Source: Candidatus Saccharimonadota bacterium (GTDB lineage Bacteria > Patescibacteriota > Saccharimonadia > Saccharimonadales > Saccharimonadaceae). Taken from it: a DNA stretch of 64,000 bases. The translations under genes and the position numbers were made by a program. Positions 3,305-57,872 of this stretch are shown piece by piece; the first letter of the stretch is position 1; each line of letters starts with the position of its first letter. The stretch covers positions 11,065 to 75,064 of the forward strand of contig JAFRJE010000010.1 of NCBI GenBank assembly GCA_017432425.1, written 5' to 3'. Below the pieces are notes generated by a model. It was not told the origin of the DNA. It saw only the letters and a list, made by a program, of their open reading frames with translations, and made no database searches.

Positions 3305-3888
3305 TGAAAGATTTTTTAAAACAAGTCAGCGACCAGGAAACTAAAAAACTTTTAGAACTAGCGACGCTCGCCCTCGAAACGGAGGGCGACTTCGTCGAAT
3401 TGGGCTGTTACCGCGGCGACACTTCGCTCCTTCTCGAAAAACTAATCGAAAACTCGAAAAAATCGAAAAAACTTTGGCTCTACGATTCTTTCGCCGGTCT
3501 TCCCGAAAAAACTAAAGAAGACGCCTCTGTCGCCGGCGACGAATTTAAGGCGAGCGAACTTTTTGTTTCGAAACGCGAAGTCGTCGAACGTTTTAAAAAA
3601 ACCGGTCTAAAACTTCCGGTTATTAAAAAGAATTTTTTTGAAAACTTAAATCCCGAAACCGACCTGCCGGAAAAAATCGCTTTCGCTTTTCTAGACGGCG
3701 ATTTATATTCCTCAATAAAAACCTCCCTCTCCCTCGTCACTCCGAAACTCTCAGATCGGGGAATTATGCTTGTCCACGATTACAATAATCCAAAACTCCC
3801 CGGACCCGCTCGCGCCGTCGACGAATTTTTAAACAAAAACCCGAATTTTCGGCTTAATCTTTTCGAGACCCTCGCGATTATTTCGTAA
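3304..3888 (+). CDS. Class I SAM-dependent methyltransferase (TylF/MycF-like)
   Basis: ELGCYRGDTS glycine-rich loop, FAFLDGDLY and VHDY motifs resemble macrocin-O-methyltransferase-type enzymes. The start overlaps the ackA stop (TAATG). Confidence 0.6.
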   Translation: MKDFLKQVSDQETKKLLELATLALETEGDFVELGCYRGDTSLLLEKLIENSKKSKKLWLYDSFAGLPEKTKEDASVAGDEFKASELFVSKREVVERFKKTGLKLPVIKKNFFENLNPETDLPEKIAFAFLDGDLYSSIKTSLSLVTPKLSDRGIMLVHDYNNPKLPGPARAVDEFLNKNPNFRLNLFETLAIIS

Positions 3889-4442
3889 TTTTTCGAACTC
3901 GCTCAAGTAACAAATTCGTTTCTTTTTTCTCTTCCAGTTTCGTAATCGCGAAACTCTTTTCGCCCGCGTCTTTTAACGACGCGCCGATATGATAAAATTC
4001 CTCTCGGTCTAAAATCAACAACCGGTCGTGAAAATCGCTCGTCTTATATATTTTTAGCTCCGGATATTCCGAGTTAAACTTCCGAATTTCGTTTAAAGAT
4101 AATTTCGTTGACGGCAACGTTAAAACAGAAACCAAAACTCCCGCCCGTTTCGCTCGGAAATAGCTCTCGATATTCGTCTTTCGTTAAACGAAAACGGAAG
4201 TCGTCCGGAAACCGCTCCCTATTCCGGGTCGCTAACTTGTTTAAAGTCTCCGCCTCAATCCGATAAAGTTTTGCTAAATCAAAATCAAACACTACCGGAC
4301 GTCCGTGAATAATATGAATCAAATCCGCGATGTTTGTCTTGCTTGTCGGAGAAATTTCTCGGTCAATTGCTATAATATATATTATAACATAAAACTTTCT
4401 AAAATAAAACACTACCAGATTTTGACTTAGCACTGTTGACAA
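3878..4442 (-). pseudogene. ORF6N/KilA-N-type DNA-binding protein, split by a frameshift
   Basis: ORF 4074-4442 carries the ORF6N core (IHGRPVVFDFDLAKLYRIEAETLNKLATRNRERFPDDFRFRLTKDEY). ORF 3878-4135 carries the usual C-terminal module (DRLLILDREEFYHIGASLKDAGEKSFAITKL). Both frames are open across 4074-4183. Confidence 0.55.
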
Positions 4443-4453
4443 ACGAGTGCTAG
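4427..4453. promoter_or_regulatory. CIRCE operator (HrcA binding site), dnaK copy 1
   Basis: TTAGCACTG-N9-GAGTGCTAG versus consensus TTAGCACTC-N9-GAGTGCTAA. Confidence 0.8.
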
Positions 4454-4475
4454 TTTGCTACCATAATAGTAGAAA

Positions 4476-4502
4476 CTAGCACTCACATAATAAGACTGCT
4501 AA
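4476..4502. promoter_or_regulatory. CIRCE operator (HrcA binding site), dnaK copy 2
   Basis: CTAGCACTC-N9-GACTGCTAA, 14 nt upstream of the dnaK ATG and overlapping the leader. Confidence 0.75.
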
Positions 4503-4516
4503 CGAAAGGAGAAAAT

Positions 4517-6403
4517 ATGTCAAAAATCATTGGAATTGACCTCGGAACAACTAACTCGGCGTTTGCCTATATGGTTGCCGGAAAACCAGAAGTTATCACT
4601 AACAGCGAGGGCGACCGAACTACCCCTTCGGTCGTTGCGGTAACAAAAAAAGGCGACCGACTCGTCGGGAAAGTTGCCCAGCGTCAGCGCGTAACGAACC
4701 CAAAAAACACGATTTATGGTATTAAACGCTTAATCGGGCGCAAATTCTCCGATAAAGAAGTTCAAAAAGACCTCGATATCATGCCCTATAAAATCGTCGA
4801 AAAAGGTTCTGGCGTTGCGGTCGAAATGGACGAGAAAAAATATACCCCAGAACAAATCTCCGCGATGGTTCTCTCAAAAATCAAAGCCGACGCCGAGGCG
4901 TTTCTTGGCGAAAAGGTAACGGAAGCAATTATTACCGTCCCAGCTTATTTCGACGATTCCCAGCGCCAAGCAACTAAAGACGCCGGAAAAATTGCCGGTC
5001 TCGAAGTAAAACGAATTATTCCGGAACCGACTGCCGCGGCGCTTGCTTACGGGCTTAATAAAAAAGATGATGAAAAAATTGCCGTTTTCGACCTCGGCGG
5101 TGGAACGTTTGACGTTTCGATTCTCGAACTTGGCGACGGCGTTTTCGAAGTAAAAGCGACTAACGGCGATACCCATCTCGGCGGGGAAGATTTCGATAAT
5201 ATTATTGTCAATTATCTCTGCGACGAGTTCAAAAAAGAATCCGGCGTCGATATTAAAGGCGACGCGGCGGCGATGCAACGCATCAAAGACGAAGCCGAAA
5301 AAGCGAAAAAGGAACTCTCCTCCGCGACTTCGACCGACATTAACCTCCCGTTCTTAACCGCTGACGCTGACGGTCCGAAACATTTTGAACATACCCTAAC
5401 TCGCGCGAAACTCGAAGAACTTGTTGCGCCTCTCCTCGATCGTCTCGAAGAACCAGTTAGAAAGGCCCTAAAAGACGCAAAACTTTCCGAAAAAGATATT
5501 AACGAAGTCGTCATGGTCGGCGGTATGACTCGTATGCCGGCGGTCGTCGAAAAAGTTAAAAAGATTTTCGGCAAAGACCCGATGCAGGGCGTCAATCCGG
5601 ACGAAGTCGTTGCGGTCGGCGCGGCGATTGAGGGCGGCGTTCTTCAGGGCGACGTTAAAGACGTTCTCCTTCTCGACGTTACTCCGCTTTCTCTCGGAAT
5701 CGAAACCATGGGCGGCGTTTGCACAAAGTTAATTGATCGCAACACGACCATCCCAACCTCAAAGTCCCAAGTTTTCTCGACTGCCGCCGATAATCAGCCC
5801 CAGGTCGAAATTCACGTTCTCCAAGGCGAACGCGAAATGGCGAACGACAACAAATCTCTCGGTCGCTTTATCCTCGACGGAATCGCCCCCGCCCCGCGCG
5901 GTATTCCTCAAATCGAAGTTACTTTCAACCTCGACGCGAACGGGATTTTGAACGTTACCGCGAAAGACAAGGGAACGGGGAAAGAGCAGTCCATTACAAT
6001 CCAAAACTCCGGAAATATGTCTAAGGAAGATATTGAAAAGGCTCAAAAAGAAGCCGAGCTCCACGCCGACGAAGACAAAAAACGTCGCGAAGCCGTCGAT
6101 GCTCGTAATGTTCTCGAAAACAAAGTCTATCAGTTCGAAAAAATGCCGGACGAATATAAAGACAAAATCTCCGACGAAGATAAAGAAACGATTAAAAAAG
6201 CCTGCGACGCTGCGAAAGAAGTCTTAAAAGACGAAACCGCCGACAAAGAAAAGCTCGAAGCTGCGACGAAAGATCTCGACAATCGTATTATGCCAATCGG
6301 CGCAAAACTCTATCAACAAACTTCTTCCGACGCCTCCGCCTCTTCTGATTCTTCCGAGAAAAAAGACGACGATGACGCTGTCGAAGGAGAAGTAGTTAAA
6401 TAA
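4517..6403 (+). CDS. dnaK: Chaperone DnaK (Hsp70)
   Basis: [28 protein letters not shown] and an acidic C-terminal tail. AAAGGAG SD upstream. Confidence 0.97.
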
Positions 6404-45379: not shown

Positions 45380-46162
45380 TTGTCTGAAGAAAATAATCGT
45401 GAGAATCCCCCAGTTGAAGAAGATGTCCAGGAAAACTCCGAAGAAGAAACTTCTCCCGACCCCCCGACTCCCGAAGACGCCCCCGACGACGATGATGATA
45501 GTGATGAGTATGATGAGTATGATGATATTTTCGACGTCGAAGATGACGAAGACGATGATGACGATGATGGCGAATTTGAATATGAAGATCCGCCCCCGCG
45601 CCGGCGTCGCAAGCGTCGCAACTCTCGCAGGTACAGCCGTCGTCGCCGTTCTCCTTTCAGCTTCGCGCTAGCTATCTGTCTCATCGTCCTGTTTGCCCTC
45701 ATCATCTTTCTGGTCGTTTTGCTTTCGACCAGAGGTAATTCGTCAACTACTCCCCAACCCGCTCTCCAGACCCCGACGCCTGTTCCTGCTTCTACCGCTT
45801 CAATCGTTTATGTAACGCCCGTTCCGACGTCGGGGGCAGTTCATGCGACCGCTGCCCCGACTACCCAAGTCATCTACGTTACTCAGGCTCCAGTCATAAC
45901 ATCGGTTCCGACAGCGACCCCTGTTCCGACTGCAACCCCGACCCCAACTAGAAGTCCCGAGCTGACCCCGCCGCCTCGTTCGACGGCTACGCCGCCCGTC
46001 TGGACTTCTCCCCCAGTTTCAACCCCAACGCCAGTCATAACCCCGACTCCAGAACCATACGCCAGCCCAGTCCCGGAGATTATCCCCGAAGTTACGCTTC
46101 GCCCCGAACTAGCCGGCGACGGAGATAATTCGACCCACTTCAACTTTTCCGATGACGATTAA
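45380..46162 (+). CDS. Hypothetical charge-patterned single-pass membrane protein (hyperacidic and polybasic N-region, TM, Pro-Thr-rich ectodomain, C-terminal HFNFSDDD)
   Basis: TTG start 9 nt after AGGAGG. DDDDDSDEYDEYDDIFDVEDDEDDDDDD, then RRRRKRRNSRRYSRRRR, a TM helix, PTATPVPTATPTPT and TPPPRS. G+C-rich relative to neighbours. Confidence 0.75.
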   Translation: MSEENNRENPPVEEDVQENSEEETSPDPPTPEDAPDDDDDSDEYDEYDDIFDVEDDEDDDDDDGEFEYEDPPPRRRRKRRNSRRYSRRRRSPFSFALAICLIVLFALIIFLVVLLSTRGNSSTTPQPALQTPTPVPASTASIVYVTPVPTSGAVHATAAPTTQVIYVTQAPVITSVPTATPVPTATPTPTRSPELTPPPRSTATPPVWTSPPVSTPTPVITPTPEPYASPVPEIIPEVTLRPELAGDGDNSTHFNFSDDD

Positions 46163-46265: not shown

Positions 46266-46342
<77 letters not shown>

Positions 46343-46453
46343 ATGTTAATAATTGGTTAAGCATATCTCAACTACCCCTGTAAAAAGGGGCTTTTTTGTT
46401 AGTTTTCCGTAAAATGGCATAAGCGGATTTGAACCCTCAAAATTGCTTCTGCT

Positions 46454-46702
46454 TGGTGCAAAAAAGAGAAAATTCTTGTTACCGTGTAACATGGTTATTT
46501 TTCGCTATACTCGTTCATGAACATATCTATCGAATATCACGTATTTTAGGCTTGCCTGGTGCAGGTCTGGTGCAGTTTTGCGCTTGCCTGGTGCAGTTTT
46601 GCGCTTGCCTGGTGCAGTTTTGCGCTTGCCTGGTGCAAAATTATGTTGTATTTGGGCAATCCTGGTGCGTACTTGGTGCAGTTCTGGTGCACAATTGGTG
46701 CA
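46454..46702. repeat. Array of ten TGGTGC(A/G) sites spaced in multiples of about one helical turn, including 3.5 tandem 21-bp units
   Basis: Sites start at 46454, 46557, 46568, 46589, 46610, 46631, 46663, 46674, 46685 and 46696. The unit GCTTGCCTGGTGCAGTTTTGC is repeated in tandem. Confidence 0.9.
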
Positions 46703-46705
46703 ACA

Positions 46706-46788
46706 CCAAAGTGCCAAGTTTTTCCCAGCCGAACTGCCAAGTATTCTTTCTCCAAAGTGCCAAGTTTTTCCCAGCCGAACTGCCAAGT
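46706..46788. repeat. Two identical 37-bp direct repeats carrying four TGCCAAGT sites at 23-bp spacing
   Basis: CCAAAGTGCCAAGTTTTTCCCAGCCGAACTGCCAAGT at 46706-46742 and 46752-46788. TGCCAAGT at 46712, 46735, 46758 and 46781. Confidence 0.9.
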
Positions 46789-46829
46789 TCGAGCTTGCTT
46801 TTATAAAACTTGTGATATAATCAGGATAT

Positions 46830-48104
46830 ATGGCAAAAAATGAATATATCCCCAGATTAGTCGATAAGGAGCTCCAAGAAAAACTAGACAACTTTGGCGC
46901 GATTAACATTATCGGTTGTAAATGGTGTGGCAAAACGCGAACCGCAAAAGAATTCGCTAAGAGTTTTATTGAACTTCAAAACCCAAACGATAAGTCTATT
47001 CCTCTTATCAAAAGTGAACCCAGCCTCGCCCTTGAAGGCAACTACCCCCGGCTAATCGACGAGTGGCAAGATATTCCAGAAATCTGGGATGCTGTCCGCT
47101 ATGAAGTTGATAAGACCGGAGAAATTGGCCAATTTATATTAACGGGCTCATCCACTCCTAGAAAAGAAAAGCCAAAACACTCAGGTGCGGGACGGTTTGC
47201 AGACGTCAAAATGCGCCCCATGTCTTTATTCGAATCGGGTGATTCTAACGGTGAGATTTCCTTAGAATCTCTCTTTATTTCTAATATCAGAGTCAAGGGC
47301 GAATCCCCTTATCGTCTCGGCGATATCGCTTATCTTTGTGCTCGTGGTGGTTGGCCGAGTAGTATAGCGCATAAACCGACCAACCCTTTGCTCCTACCTA
47401 AGGAATATCTTAAGAAACTCATCAATCGAGAAGAAAGCTTTGGTGATATTGATTATTTTAGCCCGGGACGAATGCAGGCTCTCCTCAGGTCGATCGCTAG
47501 AAAAACTGCAACTCCAATTCGGATTGCTACAACCGTCAATGACATTTTACAAAATACAGGAACGAGCATTACCGACATCACGGTCTCAAACTACCTATCG
47601 GTTCTTGAACAGCTTTACTTGCTTGAAGACGTTGAAGCTTGGTCGCCGAAGCTAAGAAGCAAAACTGATATTCGTACGACCAAAAAGCGCTTTTTCGTCG
47701 ATCCATCTCTTGCTGTAGCATCTCTTTACGCAAATGAAAACGATCTGCTATCTGACGCGGAAACATTTGGTCTAATCTTTGAATCCATGGCACTTCGCGA
47801 TCTAAGGATCTACTCTGAAGCAATTAACGGTGAACTCTTTTATTATCGCGACAAAAACGGGTTAGAATGCGACGCAATCATTCATCTCGCAGATGGAAGG
47901 TGGGGTGCCATAGAAATCAAGCTTGGGTCTGCTAAGGAAACCATCGAAGCAGCAGCGGCTTCATTACGCGCTCTTGAAACGCAAATTGACACAACGGCCA
48001 TGAAGTCTCCTTCGTTTCTGATGATTCTATCTGGCGACTCAAAATATGCCTACAGAAGGGAAGATGGCGTATATGTAGTGCCGATTGGATGTCTCAAGCC
48101 ATAG
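46830..48104 (+). CDS. AAA+ ATPase of the AAA_14/DUF4143 type
   Basis: Walker A GCKWCGKT and LIDEWQ Walker B-like motif. Overall layout resembles COG1373-type ATPases. TGATATAAT lies 8 nt upstream of the ATG. Confidence 0.8.
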   Translation: MAKNEYIPRLVDKELQEKLDNFGAINIIGCKWCGKTRTAKEFAKSFIELQNPNDKSIPLIKSEPSLALEGNYPRLIDEWQDIPEIWDAVRYEVDKTGEIGQFILTGSSTPRKEKPKHSGAGRFADVKMRPMSLFESGDSNGEISLESLFISNIRVKGESPYRLGDIAYLCARGGWPSSIAHKPTNPLLLPKEYLKKLINREESFGDIDYFSPGRMQALLRSIARKTATPIRIATTVNDILQNTGTSITDITVSNYLSVLEQLYLLEDVEAWSPKLRSKTDIRTTKKRFFVDPSLAVASLYANENDLLSDAETFGLIFESMALRDLRIYSEAINGELFYYRDKNGLECDAIIHLADGRWGAIEIKLGSAKETIEAAAASLRALETQIDTTAMKSPSFLMILSGDSKYAYRREDGVYVVPIGCLKP

Positions 48105-48166
48105 AGGTGCGAGAAATGGGGTTTAATAAAACAAACGACAACAACGCAGCATAGTATAAATAAACC

Positions 48167-49072
48167 CTATACTATCCCCTCATGATTCCCCTCAATCTTA
48201 TACATTCTTCTTTCTCCACGATTCTTGACTACTTTTTTATTGATGTAGTCTTTCGTGTAAGATTTCCCAATCACTACATCGCCGTGATATTTCTCATTGT
48301 TCAGAATACCTACGATGGTAGCCGGATGCCATTTAGCTTTGCCTTTAGGGGCAGGGATAGCTTCCTGTTCTAGGATATGTGCAATTCTGGTAGAACCCTT
48401 GCCTTGTTGGTTTAGCTCAAAGATTCTTCTCACAACTCTAGCTTCTGGTTCATAAATAACTAATTTGCCAGTTGCTTCGTCTTTCCTATAGCCATAACAA
48501 GGTCGGTTATATCTTCCCGACTTCCCCGACTCCGCCGCCCTTTCCATTCCCCACTTAATATTCTCGCTGCGTTGTCGACTTTCGTCCTGGAAGAGGGAAA
48601 AGAAAACAGAATAATACATCTCCGCCTTAGGGTCAAAGATAGAAACAGGATAACATTCAAACCTAACTTCTATCCCCAAATCCTTTAACTCTCTCAAAAT
48701 AGAAAGCCCGTCTACCGTATTCCTACTGAATCGACTCGGACTTTTACAAAGGATCAGATCAATCCTGCCTTTTCGGCAATCATCAAGCATCGCCAAGAAT
48801 TCCGGTCGTTTATCGGTTCTCAGTCCTGACGCCTCATCCGCATAAATTCCTACATAGTTCCAGTTCGGATTCTTCTTAATGTAATCTCTATAATACTCTT
48901 TCTGCGCTATTAGGGAGCCATATTGCTCATCTTTCTTAGAAGAAACTCGCGCGTAAGCAGCAACGTTAAGACGTCTATTGCTTTTATCTATACTAAGTTC
49001 ATGGCGAGAAACTTCGTCAGTCAACCATGCCTCTGGTAGTATTTCCTGGACTTTCATAAACGCAGGTATCAT
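48167..49072 (-). CDS. Large serine recombinase, C-terminally truncated (resolvase + recombinase domains only)
   Basis: AAYARVSS catalytic Ser, LILCKSPSRFSRN, PCYGYRKD, WHPATIVGILNNEKYHGD. Ends at ...IEGNHEGIV, where full-length enzymes continue into a zinc ribbon and coiled coil. Downstream frames show no continuation. Confidence 0.75.
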   Translation of the reverse strand: MIPAFMKVQEILPEAWLTDEVSRHELSIDKSNRRLNVAAYARVSSKKDEQYGSLIAQKEYYRDYIKKNPNWNYVGIYADEASGLRTDKRPEFLAMLDDCRKGRIDLILCKSPSRFSRNTVDGLSILRELKDLGIEVRFECYPVSIFDPKAEMYYSVFFSLFQDESRQRSENIKWGMERAAESGKSGRYNRPCYGYRKDEATGKLVIYEPEARVVRRIFELNQQGKGSTRIAHILEQEAIPAPKGKAKWHPATIVGILNNEKYHGDVVIGKSYTKDYINKKVVKNRGERRMYKIEGNHEGIV

Positions 49073-49120
49073 AACATATTTTTGAGGTAGTTCAAAGCAT
49101 AAACACCTTCCACCCCTGTT

Positions 49121-49326
49121 GCTACACGGTAAAACACGGGAAACGTATTGTGTTACACGGAAAAGCATGTGAGCCTTATTATGCTACACGGGAAAGAAAA
49201 AATCGTTACACGGCAAAACACGGGAAAAGTGTATTCAAGCAAAAAGCGAACAGCGAACCCAAAAATCGAACCATAGGATTCACTTCGTTATTTGAGCTGC
49301 ACACACCCACGGTATTCGCTACACGG
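49121..49326. repeat. Array of seven ACACGG sites, six of them spaced in multiples of about one helical turn, upstream of the recombinase gene
   Basis: ACACGG at 49124, 49134, 49155, 49186, 49208, 49218 and 49321. A 25-bp composite G(C/T)TACACGG(T/C)AAAACACGGGAAA(C/A)G occurs at 49121 and 49205 (22/25 identical). Confidence 0.85.
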
Positions 49327-49439
49327 AAGGCTACTTTGTCGCCAAATTGACGCAACGAGCCACTCCCCTTGACTAAGGGACTTTTTTATGCTAAAATTTC
49401 AAAAAATCGCACCTTTCGCTCAAAAAAGGAGGAATATTC

Positions 49440-49787
49440 ATGAAGCCTTCCGTTATTGCCGTATCTGTCGCCTTTGTCGCTATTATCGTCGCCGTTGTTA
49501 TCGCCCTCTGCTTAGACTCGACTGGAACTTCCGCCCCGCCGACGACCGCTGTCCAAGCCCAAACCGCTACGCCCCAGGTCGTCTATGCGACCGCGGCTCC
49601 CGCCAGCGAAAATTTGACCTGGGCGCTCTATGATTCTAAAACCGGTCAAATCATCGCCACCCCCGTTCCGACCGCGACCCCTGTTCCTCTCCAGAATCCC
49701 AACGATCGCCCATTTGGGGACGTCTCAAAAGGCGCCGTCTCCGATTATGGCGACGGCTTCCAATCTACCCCTCCGCCCCGCTCCTAA
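49440..49787 (+). CDS. Short paralogue of the 45380 protein ectodomain (signal anchor + Pro-Thr-rich, ends TPPPRS)
   Basis: AGGAGG SD upstream. TM helix VIAVSVAFVAIIVAVVIALCL. TATPQVVYATAAP and ATPVPTATPVP match APTTQVIYVTQAP and VPTATPVPTATP in the 45380 product. Confidence 0.65.
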   Translation: MKPSVIAVSVAFVAIIVAVVIALCLDSTGTSAPPTTAVQAQTATPQVVYATAAPASENLTWALYDSKTGQIIATPVPTATPVPLQNPNDRPFGDVSKGAVSDYGDGFQSTPPPRS

Positions 49788-50637: not shown

Positions 50638-51585
50638 TCATAATTCACCTCGTGATATAAAATCAATCGCTCCTGTCGCCGCAACCGCCCCGTCCGCCGT
50701 TGCTGTAACCAGTTGATTTAACTTTTTCTTCCGAACGTCCCCTGCGCAAAACACCCCCTCCCTCGAAGTTCGACAGCTTTCGTCCGACTCAATATATCCC
50801 TCTTTGTCAAGTTCAATGAACTCCTTAAACCTCTGATTATCTGGCTCTCGCCCAATCGCAACAAACAACCCCCCAACCGCCAGCTCTTTTCTCTCTGAAT
50901 CGCCTCCGGAAACCTCTGTCTCCTCTAAAATTATCTTTTCTAGCTTTTTACCCCCTGCTAATTCGACAATTTTTTTGTTCATCAAAAACTCAACATGCCC
51001 CAACTACGCGACTTTCTCGACCAAAGCCTTGTCTGCCCGAAACTCCCCTCGTCGATGGATAACATAAACCTTAGCCGCTAAATTCGCGAGATAGAGCGCG
51101 TCCCAGAGTGCCGTATTTCCGCCCCCGTTAACCGCGACCGTCTTTCCCTTAAAGAACCCCCCGTCGCAGGTCGCGCAGTACGAAATCCCCCGCCCGACAA
51201 ACTTTTCCTCGTTACTAAGCCCAAGTCTCCTCTCGACCGACCCATTGGCGAGAATAATCGCTCGCGCAACATATTCTCCCTCGTCTGTCAAAACTTTAAA
51301 CTTCCCCCTGCCTTGATTATTTTCAACAATTTCTAAAACCTCCTCAAACCTAAACTCCGCCCCTAGCTCCTTCGCTTGTTTATAGAGGTTATTCGCAAAC
51401 TCGACCCCAGAAATATGCGCTGCCGCCGGATAATTCTCGATTTTTGTCGTATTTATAATTTGCCCGCCGTACGTTTTCGCCTCAAAAACCAAAACTTCCT
51501 TTCCCGCCCGTACCCCATAAATCGCCGCCGTCATTCCCGCCGCCCCCGCGCCAACAATGACAATATCATAAACTTTTTCTGTCAT
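50638..51585 (-). pseudogene. trxB: Thioredoxin reductase interrupted by one in-frame TAG
   Basis: The two ORFs are contiguous and in the same frame (193 aa, TAG at 51004-51006, 121 aa). They carry GAGAAGMTAA, CATCDG, GGGNTA and FCAGDV motifs. The combined length is typical of TrxB. Confidence 0.7.
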
Positions 51586-55373: not shown

Positions 55374-56198
55374 ATGTTGGCATACTACATCTGTGTAGTT
55401 CTCACTATCATCGTTTCGATTCTTATCGCTTTAACCTTCTGGTTTCAGTGTGTGAGCAACAATCGGGATCGGAGAGACCGAAAAATCATGAGGCCTGTTC
55501 CCATGTTCGGACTCTCGACCGCCATCGCTTTCGCGACCTGGCTTCCAATGTTTCTCTCGATCCAGATTCTCCGCGCCCAGTCAATCTCCGTTTTTGGAGC
55601 AATCGGCGAAGCGCTCGTCGCTTGTCTTGCCCTTGTCGAGCTCGTTTTCGTGCTCGACTGGAACAAAAAGGCAAAGACCGAGGGTCAAGCCAAAGGAGTT
55701 TTCACTCTAGTGCTCGTCCCAATCGCCGTCTTTACCTGCGCTCTGACCACGCTTTTCTCTAAAACAGATTGGTGGTTGGTCGTATTCTTCGCTGTTCTGG
55801 CGTTTTCCTCGATTATGTTCACTTGGGCCGCGCGCTCAAAGAACCCGCTCTTCAGGAAGATTAAGAGGACGAAGAAAAAGACACGGGAACGTTTCCGCTC
55901 CTATGACGAGTACGACGAGTACGACGAGTATGACGAAGATGACGAATATGACGAAGAAGATGAAGAAGACGACGATGATGAAGAGGAGGACGACGAAGAG
56001 GAAGAAGACGAAGACGAATACGACGAATATGATGACGATGACGATAACGACGATGATGACGAACCCGAACCGAGGAGGAAAACAACCAATTCTTCTCGCC
56101 GTCGCGGTTCGACCATCGTTCCGCGGCGCATCCAACCCAACTCAAACCAGAACCGTCGCAAGAAGCGGCGCTCCAACGCGACTCGCGTTAGGAGATGA
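55374..56198 (+). CDS. Hypothetical five-TM membrane protein with polybasic / about 60-residue D-E-Y hyperacidic / polybasic tail
   Basis: Five hydrophobic helices, then KIKRTKKKTRERFRSY, then DEYDEYDEYDEDDEYDEEDEEDDDDEEEDDEEEEDEDEYDEYDDDDDNDDDDE, then an RRKKRRSNATRVRR tail. SD AAGGAGGG upstream. Confidence 0.7.
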   Translation: MLAYYICVVLTIIVSILIALTFWFQCVSNNRDRRDRKIMRPVPMFGLSTAIAFATWLPMFLSIQILRAQSISVFGAIGEALVACLALVELVFVLDWNKKAKTEGQAKGVFTLVLVPIAVFTCALTTLFSKTDWWLVVFFAVLAFSSIMFTWAARSKNPLFRKIKRTKKKTRERFRSYDEYDEYDEYDEDDEYDEEDEEDDDDEEEDDEEEEDEDEYDEYDDDDDNDDDDEPEPRRKTTNSSRRRGSTIVPRRIQPNSNQNRRKKRRSNATRVRR

Positions 56199-56216: not shown

Positions 56217-57872
56217 ATGCGTAAAACGCGCAAAAAGCCCGGCATCGTCCGGTTCACTAGTTTCCTGGCAATCATTTCCGTTTTCGGACTGATTGTCAGC
56301 AGCCTGGGCGTGGCAAATCCTGCCTGGCTCAGCGAAGCCCGTAACCTGATTGACCCTGTCGCTTACGCTGATGGGGTTGAACAAGCCGATCTGACCTTCG
56401 CCTGGAGCGGAAATACCCGCGAACACGCCGACCTCAGCTACCGTTCGCTCATGTCGAACAAGTACTGGGACGCCGGCGAGTGGGTAATTTCCCACAACAG
56501 CTTCTACGAAACCGACGAGGCTCGCGTAGCCGCCGCTGGTTTTAGTGATGCTTTGACTTTCCCCTTTGCGAACTGGCCCGAAGATGAATGGGAAATGATG
56601 TATTTCGACCCCGACCTCCTGAAACAGGAAGTCTGGGAAGAACTGAAAACCAACCCGATTTACCTCTACGCTTTTATCAGCTATCTCCGCGACTGCGAAA
56701 CCAGAAGCGGCGGTACTCTGGGCGACTGGAACTCGGATTGGATGGACCATTACATCGAAACGTCCGACTACTATTGTTCTTTGGCGAACCCGAACAGTCC
56801 GAACTATAATCCCAACGCCGATCTGAAAGGCTGGGACTATTGGACTTGGCAGTCCCAGACGAACATGTATGAAGCCGTCGCGACCGACGAATACAAGGAA
56901 ATCGCTATTCTAGCGATGTCTCTGTTTGACCGGTTCGTGTTTATCGGCTTCTATGACAACGTCAACGCTTACGAATCGTGGGCGCTGAGCGATACCCAGT
57001 CAACCGACTACCGGACGGCGATTAAAATGGATTACCATATTACCCGCCCGGCGATTGTCTTCGGCTATGAACGTAAGGATAGCTTCGGTGCGCGCTTTTT
57101 CGGCGGACAGGGAACTTATGATTGTTTGTTAGGGCTTGACCGCCATGACAAACGTCCCGAGCGACCTGGCGAACCCGAACAGCCGCCTGCCCCGACCGCA
57201 ACTCCCTACATTCCTCCGATTTCCCAGCCGACTCCGACTCCGGAAATGCCGACTGTCCCGCCGATTGAGACGGTTCCGCCGACGAAACCGCCGAAGCCGA
57301 CCCCGACCCCGACTGCGACTCCTGTCCCGACTGCGACCCCGCAGCCTACGACAACTCCGCAACCTACGACAACGCCGCGACCGACGAATACACCTAAGCC
57401 GACTCCGACGGCAAAACCGACGCCTACACCGACAGCGAAGCCGACCCCGACCCCAACGGTCAAGCCGACTCCGACTCCGACAACTAGGCCGACTCCGACT
57501 CCGACGCCTGCCCCGACCGCAACTCCCCATCCGACCAAGGATCCGGGCGAACGGCCCCAGGCTACAGATGCGCCGATTGGCGGTGGTCCGGTTAATCCGG
57601 AGAATTCGGAAGATCCCTATCAGCCGACTCCGCCTCCGCGTTCAACGCCGAGGCCGGCAGACCCGACTCCGAAGCCAGCTGACCCGACGCCGAAACCGAC
57701 CGAAAAGCCGGCAGACCCGACGCCGAAGCCAGCCGATCCGACGAAGAAACCGGAAGTAACCGTGGCTCCGCCCGCTCCGGTTGAACCGGAAAAACCGGCG
57801 GCAACCAAAAAGCCGGAGATTCATGACGATCCTCCCCAGGAGGAACACATCGACTTCTCCGACGACGACTAG
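56217..57872 (+). CDS. Hypothetical secreted/anchored protein: signal anchor, Trp/Tyr/Asp-rich domain, about 200-aa Pro-Thr-rich linker, C-terminal HIDFSDDD
   Basis: TAGGAGG SD; the ATG lies 18 nt after the upstream stop. FTSFLAIISVFGLIVSSLGVA signal, PTATPVPTATP and TPPPRS modules, PADPTPK repeats. Confidence 0.75.
   Translation: MRKTRKKPGIVRFTSFLAIISVFGLIVSSLGVANPAWLSEARNLIDPVAYADGVEQADLTFAWSGNTREHADLSYRSLMSNKYWDAGEWVISHNSFYETDEARVAAAGFSDALTFPFANWPEDEWEMMYFDPDLLKQEVWEELKTNPIYLYAFISYLRDCETRSGGTLGDWNSDWMDHYIETSDYYCSLANPNSPNYNPNADLKGWDYWTWQSQTNMYEAVATDEYKEIAILAMSLFDRFVFIGFYDNVNAYESWALSDTQSTDYRTAIKMDYHITRPAIVFGYERKDSFGARFFGGQGTYDCLLGLDRHDKRPERPGEPEQPPAPTATPYIPPISQPTPTPEMPTVPPIETVPPTKPPKPTPTPTATPVPTATPQPTTTPQPTTTPRPTNTPKPTPTAKPTPTPTAKPTPTPTVKPTPTPTTRPTPTPTPAPTATPHPTKDPGERPQATDAPIGGGPVNPENSEDPYQPTPPPRSTPRPADPTPKPADPTPKPTEKPADPTPKPADPTKKPEVTVAPPAPVEPEKPAATKKPEIHDDPPQEEHIDFSDDD
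57654..57761 (+). repeat. Tandem 54-nt coding duplication (PADPTPKPADPT(P/K)KP units)
   Basis: CCGGCAGACCCGAC...CCGAAGCCAGC recurs at 57654 and 57708. Confidence 0.7.

Follow-up and report, generated by a model that had tools for sequence, protein, structure and literature searches.

On four subterminal direct repeats of 9 bp, set in helical phase, the serine transposase of the IS607 family binds cooperatively and forms a filament, which pairs the ends of the element (PMC6188088). By analogy, the ends of the element described here would work most like those of IS607. The element lies in a 64-kb stretch of DNA from Candidatus Saccharimonadota; below, "the window" means this whole stretch. Shared with IS607 (IS1535/IS607 TnpA) are a serine recombinase, several short phased direct motifs at the ends and the lack of classical terminal inverted repeats. 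However, TnpA of IS607 is a protein of about 200 aa with an N-terminal MerR-like DNA-binding domain, while the recombinase here has 296 aa with an N-terminal catalytic domain and a C-terminal "Recombinase" domain. IS607 has about four motifs at 20-60 bp from the end, whereas 6-10 sites are found here, and they are farther away, at 100-350 bp from the junction. Further, IS607 shows little target specificity, while the elements described here lie just after tRNA genes.

Large serine recombinases (phage integrases, SCCmec Ccr, TnpX/TndX) are similar in their homologous catalytic and Recombinase domains. They integrate site-specifically with a short common core, as the element described here may do too, with its putative core AATTG. 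In these proteins, of about 440 aa or more, a zinc ribbon and a coiled coil govern directionality; the recombinase of the window lacks both. Pairing and directionality are normally the task either of accessory sites or of the zinc-ribbon/coiled-coil region of the large serine recombinases. To our knowledge, no serine integrase characterised to date depends on accessory sites, and we know of no phased accessory arrays in large serine recombinase systems.

In concept, the arrays also resemble sites II/III of res (Tn3, gamma-delta) and the arm sites of lambda, as there extra recombinase sites near the crossover take part in a higher-order complex and give directionality. But the subsites of res are inverted-repeat dimer sites, three per res and within about 120 bp, while here we see direct repeats and one imperfect palindrome (46479-46495). 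Arm-type sites are a feature of tyrosine integrases that bind them through a dedicated N-terminal domain, whereas the recombinase of the window is of the serine type.

Direct repeats of 21 bp (two turns) and 11 bp resemble plasmid iterons or parC-type sites. Plasmid iterons and ParR/parC arrays share with this locus direct repeats of about 11 or 21-22 bp on one helix face. Iteron origins are defined by at least three direct repeats of 17-22 bp at about two turns, and the 21-bp unit is present here in 3.4 copies. However, iterons and ParR/parC arrays are known only in linkage with a rep or par gene, and the element in the window has none.

Finally, Tycheposons of Prochlorococcus are also small cargo elements beside tRNA genes in streamlined genomes. 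They reportedly use mostly tyrosine recombinases and integrate into the tRNA gene itself, and we know of no phased heptamer arrays reported for them. Judged by the defining features of each group, the element described here is not an iteron origin, a par site, an IS607 element, a canonical large serine recombinase element, a res site or a set of lambda arm sites. We found neither a short serine recombinase element of Saccharibacteria nor such arrays described in the literature.

Layout of the locus

Read on the + strand, the order is tRNA-Gly, a terminator-like hairpin, the TGGTGCA array, a 23-bp array, an extended -10, an ATPase gene, a convergent recombinase gene on the - strand, an ACACGG array and then ordinary chromosomal genes. 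Housekeeping proteins encoded in the window fall into clusters, at identities of at least 90%, with proteins assigned to Candidatus Saccharibacteria bacterium. The features are listed below; L348 is a related element beside tRNA-Pro.

46266-46340, + strand: tRNA-Gly(TCC) (ARAGORN; Rfam tRNA, 73 bits)
46344-46436, + strand: conserved left-end block with AATTGGTTAAGCATATC, the terminator-like hairpin CCCCTGTAAAAAGGGG followed by a T-run, and TGGCATAAGCGGATTTGAAC
46351-46355, no strand: left junction core AATTG, the putative crossover region (attL), 11 bp past the encoded CCA of tRNA-Gly; AATTG is repeated at the right junction
46454-46460, + strand: outlying TGGTGCA site, 103 bp before the main array, aligning with the degenerate GCTGGGCATA in L348
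46479-46495, no strand: imperfect palindrome ACCGTGTAACATGGT, which includes an inverted copy of the right-end motif (CCGTGTA), the only one at the left end
46557-46702, + strand: main YYTGGTGC(A/G) array of nine sites, with the 21-bp x 3.4 repeat (46567-46637) and a cluster of sites spaced by 11 bp (46663-46702)
46705-46789, + strand: array of 23-bp period, TGCCAAGT x 4 (TRF), part of the ATPase gene module
46811-46821, + strand: extended -10 of the ATPase gene, TGTGATATAAT, read from the sequence; ACTTGTGRTATAAT is conserved in the homologue loci L009, L012 and L013
46830-48104, + strand: cargo ATPase, AAA_14 and DUF4143 (Pfam); PADLOC PDC-S01-like, E = 1.8e-57
48167-49057, - strand: short serine recombinase, 296 aa, Resolvase and Recombinase domains (Pfam)
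49068-49095, - strand: sigma-70-like promoter of the recombinase gene, TTGAAC, 16-nt spacer and TATGAT with TG; the region is conserved in L348
49123-49224, + strand: ACACGGnAAA array of six sites (49124, 49134, 49155, 49186, 49208, 49218), inverted relative to the left-end motif
49320-49353, + strand: right end, with the terminal TACACGG 25 bp before AATTG (49345-49349) and the conserved stretch GCC(A/T)AATTGACGC, after which the similarity to L348 ends
49366-49389, + strand: terminator-like hairpin CCCTTGACTAAGGG followed by a T-run, just outside the right AATTG

From this layout, the region of about 3.0 kb between tRNA-Gly and the outer hairpin (about 46351-49349) appears to be an integrated element. 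The outer hairpin is probably the native terminator of tRNA-Gly, displaced by the insertion: excising the 3.0 kb between the AATTG cores would put it directly after the tRNA gene. We read the hairpin in the left block, right after tRNA-Gly, as a substitute terminator that the element brings along. AATTG is also present at both the left and the right junction of L348. Given its architecture and its recurrence, the element is probably mobile, perhaps still today. The predicted empty site reads ...CGCACCATGATGTTAATAATTGACGCAACGAGCCACTCCCC... and the predicted circular junction ...GGCTACTTTGTCGCCAAATTGGTTAAGCATATCTCAAC...; neither was retrieved, and the element is present in every contig that has the flanking gene at 49440-49787. 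The initial annotation had placed the TGGTGCA array at the edge of a putative element beside tRNA-Gly and had seen no Rep, Par or small DNA-binding gene in the element. Both statements hold: Pfam, NCBIfam and PADLOC, run on all ORFs of the element, find only the ATPase and the serine recombinase.

The recombinase matches PF00239 in its N-terminal part (E = 1e-28) and PF07508 in its C-terminal part (E = 3e-17). The Zn-ribbon family PF13408 gives no match, and the protein sequence stops at residue 296, within the Recombinase domain or directly behind it. In all assemblies (20 or more contigs) the gene is called at 296 aa, and homologues of 283-309 aa are numerous, indicating that the short form is a real architecture and not a broken gene. 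Conserved positions in 29 members of the family comprise, among others, the R-x-S motif and the resolvase domain's paired arginines.

The best NCBIfam and PDB matches of the recombinase are CcrB/CcrC, a conjugative-transposon recombinase and SPbeta SprA. The IS607 model of NCBIfam scores 41.7 bits against a cut-off of 110. Viral relatives have 435-560 aa and are nearly all full-length large serine recombinases; as full-length forms they are uninformative on the arrays. Plasmid relatives are mostly long forms too, and R. albus pRUMAL02 has a 289-aa form between two long ones.

Phased arrays and related elements

The heptamer TGGTGCA occurs nine times in the 64-kb window, always on the + strand (46454, 46557, 46568, 46589, 46610, 46631, 46674, 46685 and 46696). 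In shuffled sequences 1.06 +/- 1.02 copies are found, and none of 100 shuffles contains at least nine. A tenth site, TGGTGCG, starts at 46663, and all ten lie within 46454-46702. Counted from 46557, the start-to-start spacings are 11, 21, 21, 21, 32, 11, 11 and 11 bp. The ten sites and their spacings had been described in the initial annotation, together with a perfect tandem core and a location on one face of the helix. The motif count, the shuffles and the spacing list bear out the sites and spacings, and in TRF the tandem core is a 21-bp unit repeated 3.4 times at 100% matches (46567-46637).

The location on one helix face is confirmed by circular resultants of 0.88-0.98 at periods of 10.5-10.65 bp. 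All ten sites together give 0.89 at 10.5 bp, the nine main sites give 0.98 at 10.65 bp, and collapsing the 21-bp copies leaves the values at 0.88-0.98. Phasing as good as this was obtained in 8 of 20,000 random placements. As a pattern, phased and with many sites, the array is of the cooperative protein-binding kind that had been suggested for it, with a putative binder.

Beyond the perfect tandem unit there are six of the ten sites, where the 4-nt spacers differ and the heptamer and the phase do not. The perfect copies of 21 bp appear to have arisen in a recent expansion by slippage, which added sites and preserved the phase, and as such they could be neutral slippage. The same locus is found in more than 20 metagenome contigs. 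Its 21-bp unit is present in 3.4 copies in the window and in four other contigs (L002, L005, L006, L008), and in 2.4 copies in three (L001, L003, L004). This split tracks the assembly project, so that both strain variation and an assembly effect are possible.

A dispersed repeat, named in the initial annotation as an outcome that would speak against a binding array, is not what we see: no further copy of the 21-bp unit is present in the window, in IMG/VR or in 436 fetched loci, other than those that represent this locus itself. When genome and virus collections were scanned for three TGGTGCA sites, nearly all the matches listed were coding repeats with a period that is a multiple of 3.

At the opposite end of the element the ACACGG sites, including a seventh at 49321, are phased as well (R about 0.9 at 10.3-10.5 bp). 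TACACGG has six exact copies in the window, none of them outside the element: five belong to the right end, and the sixth, which is inverted, is at 46482 on the - strand. This last copy is part of the palindrome region, where 13 nt are 92% complementary to 49120-49132 and 49151-49163. The left motif GGTGCA and the right motif CCGTGT(A), which is the reverse complement of (T)ACACGG, have a common core. The combined pattern [CG]GTG[TC]A is found 20 times in the window, with 16 copies inside the 3-kb element. Of these, 11 are forward copies, ten of which lie at the left end and one within the recombinase gene, and the other five, all at the right end, are in reverse orientation. Each end of the element also has one outlying site, 103 bp from the main array.

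Two related elements were found in the same metagenomes, L348 beside tRNA-Pro and L351 beside tRNA-Gln. Their recombinases are 80% and 78% identical to that of the window, respectively. With the tRNA placed to the left, L348 starts with the 3' end of the tRNA and a block about 80% identical to 46315-46434 of the window (AATTGGTTAAGCATATC...CCCCTGTAAAAAGGGG...TGGCATRAGCGGATTYGAAC); for the left-end block the identity is 80% over 122 bp. Then follows a left array of five (C/T)(T/C)GGGTGCA sites with spacings of 10, 31, 11 and 10 bp (R = 0.98 at 10.3-10.5 bp) and a degenerate sixth site in phase. Compared with the window, the motif and the phase are kept, while the spacers and the length of the array differ.

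The cargo of L348 consists of three unrelated small ORFs, followed by the recombinase gene, which points toward the tRNA. The left array lies downstream of the 3' end of this cargo operon, where there is no promoter to control. At the right end four ACACGG sites, spaced by 10 bp, are found directly upstream of the recombinase promoter. The last TACACGG stands exactly 25 bp before AATTGACGC, and after this point the similarity to the window ends. The right array of the window is expanded by 64 bp relative to that of L348, which suggests that both arrays grow by duplication.

In L351 the end block is again recognisable after the tRNA, here tRNA-Gln. It is accompanied by two GTTGGTGT sites and one inverted GTTGGTGCA site (GTTGGTG(T/C) type), as well as TACACG(G/A) sites. 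The left-end sites are few, and the recombinase gene has the opposite orientation. L351 is bounded by a 31-bp direct repeat, ATGrTAACAATAATTGGTTGTGTTTTCCTAAA, which contains AATTGG. A more distant relative, L354, has a recombinase that is 54% identical, an ATPase as cargo and the end block at the start of the contig. No heptamer arrays are present in L354, so arrays are not obligatory for this type of element. In the window itself, the block was not found after tRNA-His.

The cargos of the window element, L348 and L351 are unrelated, and the recombinase is the only gene that these three have in common. The related elements have no Rep, Par or primase gene, and they share no small DNA-binding gene.

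A few other readings of the array region were considered and rejected. A structured RNA is not indicated, as the folding z-scores relative to shuffles are -1.08 (+ strand) and -0.44 (- strand), and Rfam matches only the tRNAs. The ORF at 46429-46806 would encode a Cys/Trp-rich repeat that has no support, and from its sequence we judge it to be non-coding. A sigma-54 promoter has the consensus TGGCACG-N4-TTGC. In TGGTGCAGTTTTGC the spacing from GG to GC is one base short of this consensus, and it occurs in three to four tandem repeats.

The ATPase gene and its 23-bp array

The cargo in the window is an ATPase whose DUF4143 part is classed in the PD-(D/E)XK nuclease superfamily (PMC3424549). For comparison we used the regions upstream of its homologues at 87 loci, with identities of 45-86%, from Saccharibacteria and other phyla. 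At 75 of the 87 loci a tandem array with a period of 22-24 bp is found upstream of the ATPase gene, with a median of 2.8 copies. The unit of this array is approximately GCCAAA-N4-SSRAAG-TAAAA-N3, and the array ends at a median of 51 bp before the start codon.

None of these loci contains TGGTGCA sites. Among them, the homologues with 70-86% identity (L009, L012, L013, L340, L343, L344 and L345) have the GTGCCAAGT-type 23-bp array and the promoter but no TGGTGCA. Further, no neighbour or partner gene of the ATPase is conserved in 83 loci. The presence of the 23-bp array in most of the family and the lack of a conserved neighbour indicate that the ATPase and its array form a self-contained module.

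The array at 46705-46789 is the true member of this class in the window. The TGGTGCA array differs from the class in its period (11/21 bp), its motif and its position (-273 to -127). That the TGGTGCA array is part of the ATPase module is rejected from the upstream regions of the 87 homologues, and a partner gene of the ATPase as its binder is rejected since none is conserved. The link to the ATPase promoter that had been drawn in the initial annotation is not supported either: the ATPase has its own 23-bp array, and no homologue has TGGTGCA. As a separate observation, the 23-bp array accompanies PDC-S01-like ATPase genes across phyla, and we found no mention of it in the literature.

Possible roles of the arrays

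We propose, with about even confidence, that the TGGTGCA sites form a tRNA-proximal subterminal array of cooperative accessory sites for the recombinase or a partner protein. Binding by the recombinase is favoured because a related phased array is present at the same end of L348, an inverted motif is present at the opposite end, and the recombinase is the only shared gene. For the same reasons, arm-type recombinase sites fit best among the candidates listed in the initial annotation, while the iterons and partition sites on that list do not fit.

The element is built from a 95-bp end block with a putative replacement terminator, a YYTGGTGCA array, a cargo slot, the gene for the 296-aa recombinase and an inverted ACACGG array. 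Here the slot holds the PDC-S01-like ATPase with its own 23-bp array. The ACACGG array lies just upstream of the recombinase promoter, and one further site is found at 25 bp from the right junction. At each end, multiple molecules of the recombinase, or of an accessory protein that acts with it, could line up along one face of the helix. The two nucleoprotein arrays may pair the ends of the element, build the synaptic complex and control integration and excision. In this way the arrays might provide the recombinase with control of directionality although it has no coiled coil.

The arrays may instead be bound by another protein, such as a nucleoid or DNA-bending protein of the host or a directionality factor encoded elsewhere, and the recombinase would then work at the junction cores alone. 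The motifs of the two ends (GGTGCA on the left and CCGTGT on the right) are not identical and have only the core GTG-Y-A in common, so that two different binders are possible. In addition, the recombinase has no obvious extra DNA-binding domain beyond the Recombinase domain, and L354, if it is active, works without arrays. Still, one would expect a general host factor to have further TGGTGCA sites in 64 kb of host DNA, where there are none, and no small DNA-binding gene is common to the elements; we consider such a binder unlikely.

A regulatory function is also conceivable, where the array would be a multi-operator control region of the ATPase promoter, or an insulator against read-through from the tRNA, tuned by the number of 21-bp copies. 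In favour of this, the array lies 127-273 bp upstream of the start of the ATPase and abuts the 23-bp array, its copy number varies between assemblies, and the ACACGG array is directly upstream of the recombinase promoter. But the counterpart in L348, behind the 3' end of the cargo operon, has nothing to regulate, ATPase homologues elsewhere do without the array, and no regulator gene is present in the element. This makes control of the cargo quite unlikely.

A neutral minisatellite, in which replication slippage has multiplied a short motif that has no function, would agree with the 3.4 fully identical copies and their number being polymorphic between assemblies, as well as with the 64-bp expansion of the ACACGG array. 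It would not explain why the six sites beyond the tandem unit have the same heptamer and phase with other spacers. Nor would it explain that the diverged L348 keeps a phased motif, with one base changed, at the same position and with unrelated spacers. We regard neutrality of the whole array as improbable.

Replication iterons, or a centromere-like partition site that maintains the excised circle, had been among the suggestions of the initial annotation, which also proposed a search for AT-rich unwinding elements nearby. There is a moderately AT-rich stretch at 46440-46530 (GC 0.32-0.33), but a strongly AT-rich unwinding element was not found, the lowest GC being 0.32 in a 60-bp window beside the array. 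No match to the DnaA box TTATCCACA with at most one mismatch occurs in the element. No Rep, Par or primase gene is present in the element of the window or in the related elements, and the array does not travel with such genes. The element, with its 3 kb, one recombinase and one cargo gene, has no replication machinery. Among 72,556 plasmids and 50,697 phages no similarity to known plasmids or phages was detected. A role in replication or partition is thus highly improbable, and accessory sites for recombination remain our preferred reading.

A wider proposal, which we regard as possible but doubtful, is that the window element and its relatives represent an undescribed class of miniature cargo-shuttling elements in Saccharibacteria. 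Such elements would encode a "medium" serine recombinase, with catalytic and Recombinase domains but neither zinc ribbon nor coiled coil, and have inverted phased ends of 5-10 heptamers. A filament of the recombinase on these ends would take the place of the coiled coil in pairing them and in setting the direction of recombination. They would insert between a tRNA gene and its terminator, bringing a replacement terminator, and would deliver defence or toxin genes (PDC-S01-like ATPase, CdiA-C-like domain).

Descriptions of mobile elements from Saccharibacteria and other ultra-small episymbionts are scarce. If the array is neutral or purely regulatory, the finding is an ordinary one. If the proposed role of the arrays is true, IS607 would be joined by another, independent example of phased subterminal repeats being used by a serine recombinase. 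A compact integration system specific for the flanks of tRNA genes could also become a genetic tool for hard-to-manipulate organisms. Under the same condition, a defined 3-kb element with a compact 296-aa recombinase, recognisable ends and an evident place for cargo would account for the movement of defence and toxin genes among these reduced genomes.

A tandem array linked to the ATPase genes

Immediately 5' of the promoter of AAA_14/DUF4143 ATPase genes resembling the PADLOC candidate PDC-S01 lies a conserved tandem array with a period of 22-24 bp. It was found at 75 of the 87 loci, with several phyla represented. The arrays hold a median of 2.8 copies (maximum 5.8) of a unit approximating GCCAAA-N4-SSRAAG-TAAAA-N3, and the ATPase start codon follows about 51 bp past the array end.

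ATPase-linked arrays
46705-46789, window
3856-3966, ATPase homologue locus L009
3901-3962, ATPase homologue locus L012
1281-1347, ATPase homologue locus L013
Further arrays: most of loci L260-L339

No neighbouring gene is conserved beside the ATPase, and because of this the ATPase itself may bind its own array. We found no description of the array in literature mentioning DUF4143, COG1373 or PDC-S01.

Other short phased arrays also occur at ATPase loci. At L009, GACACAC x 3 flanks the gene on either side (3676-3702 and 5971-5997). At L265 and L266, from a different organism, 4.8 AAGGTAT-type units with an 11-bp period are located about 300 bp upstream (2692-2744 in L265). The motifs of these arrays differ, and the arrays might mark the ends of further elements.

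The element boundary

The reverse complement of the window's phased heptamer, TGCACCA, shares 6 of 7 bases with CGCACCA, in which the neighbouring tRNA-Gly gene finishes at its 3' end (window 46335-46340 compared with 46557-46702). Since no clear equivalent is seen in the related elements beside tRNA-Pro and tRNA-Gln, this likeness may be due to chance.

Many metagenome contigs are broken at the tRNA or within repeat arrays: L005, L006 and L008 start within tRNA-Gly, L007, L255 and L340-L342 within an array, and L354 at the tRNA end. These breaks are compatible either with repeat-induced assembly breaks or with population heterogeneity at the element boundary.

Other genes of the window

The thioredoxin reductase gene carries an in-frame TAG (51004-51006, minus strand), which divides it into ORFs of 193 and 121 aa. 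In every other assembly of the locus AAG stands at this position, and the encoded protein of 315 aa is intact. A second difference is found nearby, at position 50997. The TAG could be a strain nonsense mutation or a sequence error.

Several ORFs without a family match contain coding tandem repeats that are acidic or rich in Pro/Thr/Asp. Such ORFs resemble the low-complexity surface proteins that are typical of Saccharibacteria.

Repeat-rich ORFs in the window, with the TRF repeats inside them
ORFs: 45380-46162, 55374-56198, 57200-57700
TRF repeats: 45491-45621, 55902-56063, 57228-57694

Short serine recombinases and their elements

The recombinase of the element belongs to a family of short forms (283-309 aa) that have Resolvase and Recombinase domains and are without a zinc-ribbon.

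Short serine recombinases
48167-49057, minus strand, window
5001-5906, L348, element beside tRNA-Pro
5001-5873, L351, element beside tRNA-Gln
4247-5173, L354, more distant element

In Saccharibacteria from the same metagenomes, small elements defined by this recombinase family directly follow different tRNA genes (Gly, Pro, Gln). The cargos of these elements bear no relation to one another and comprise a PDC-S01-like ATPase, a set of three small ORFs, a CdiA_C-like toxin domain and an RNase_T protein.

On the Ruminococcus albus 7 plasmid pRUMAL02 (L435), a 289-aa 'recombinase family protein' (NC_014825.1:265276-266145) is flanked by two long serine recombinase genes, whose products are 512 aa and about 545 aa. 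Given this position between two long forms, the short form in Firmicutes may be one member of a multi-recombinase set, rather than acting alone.
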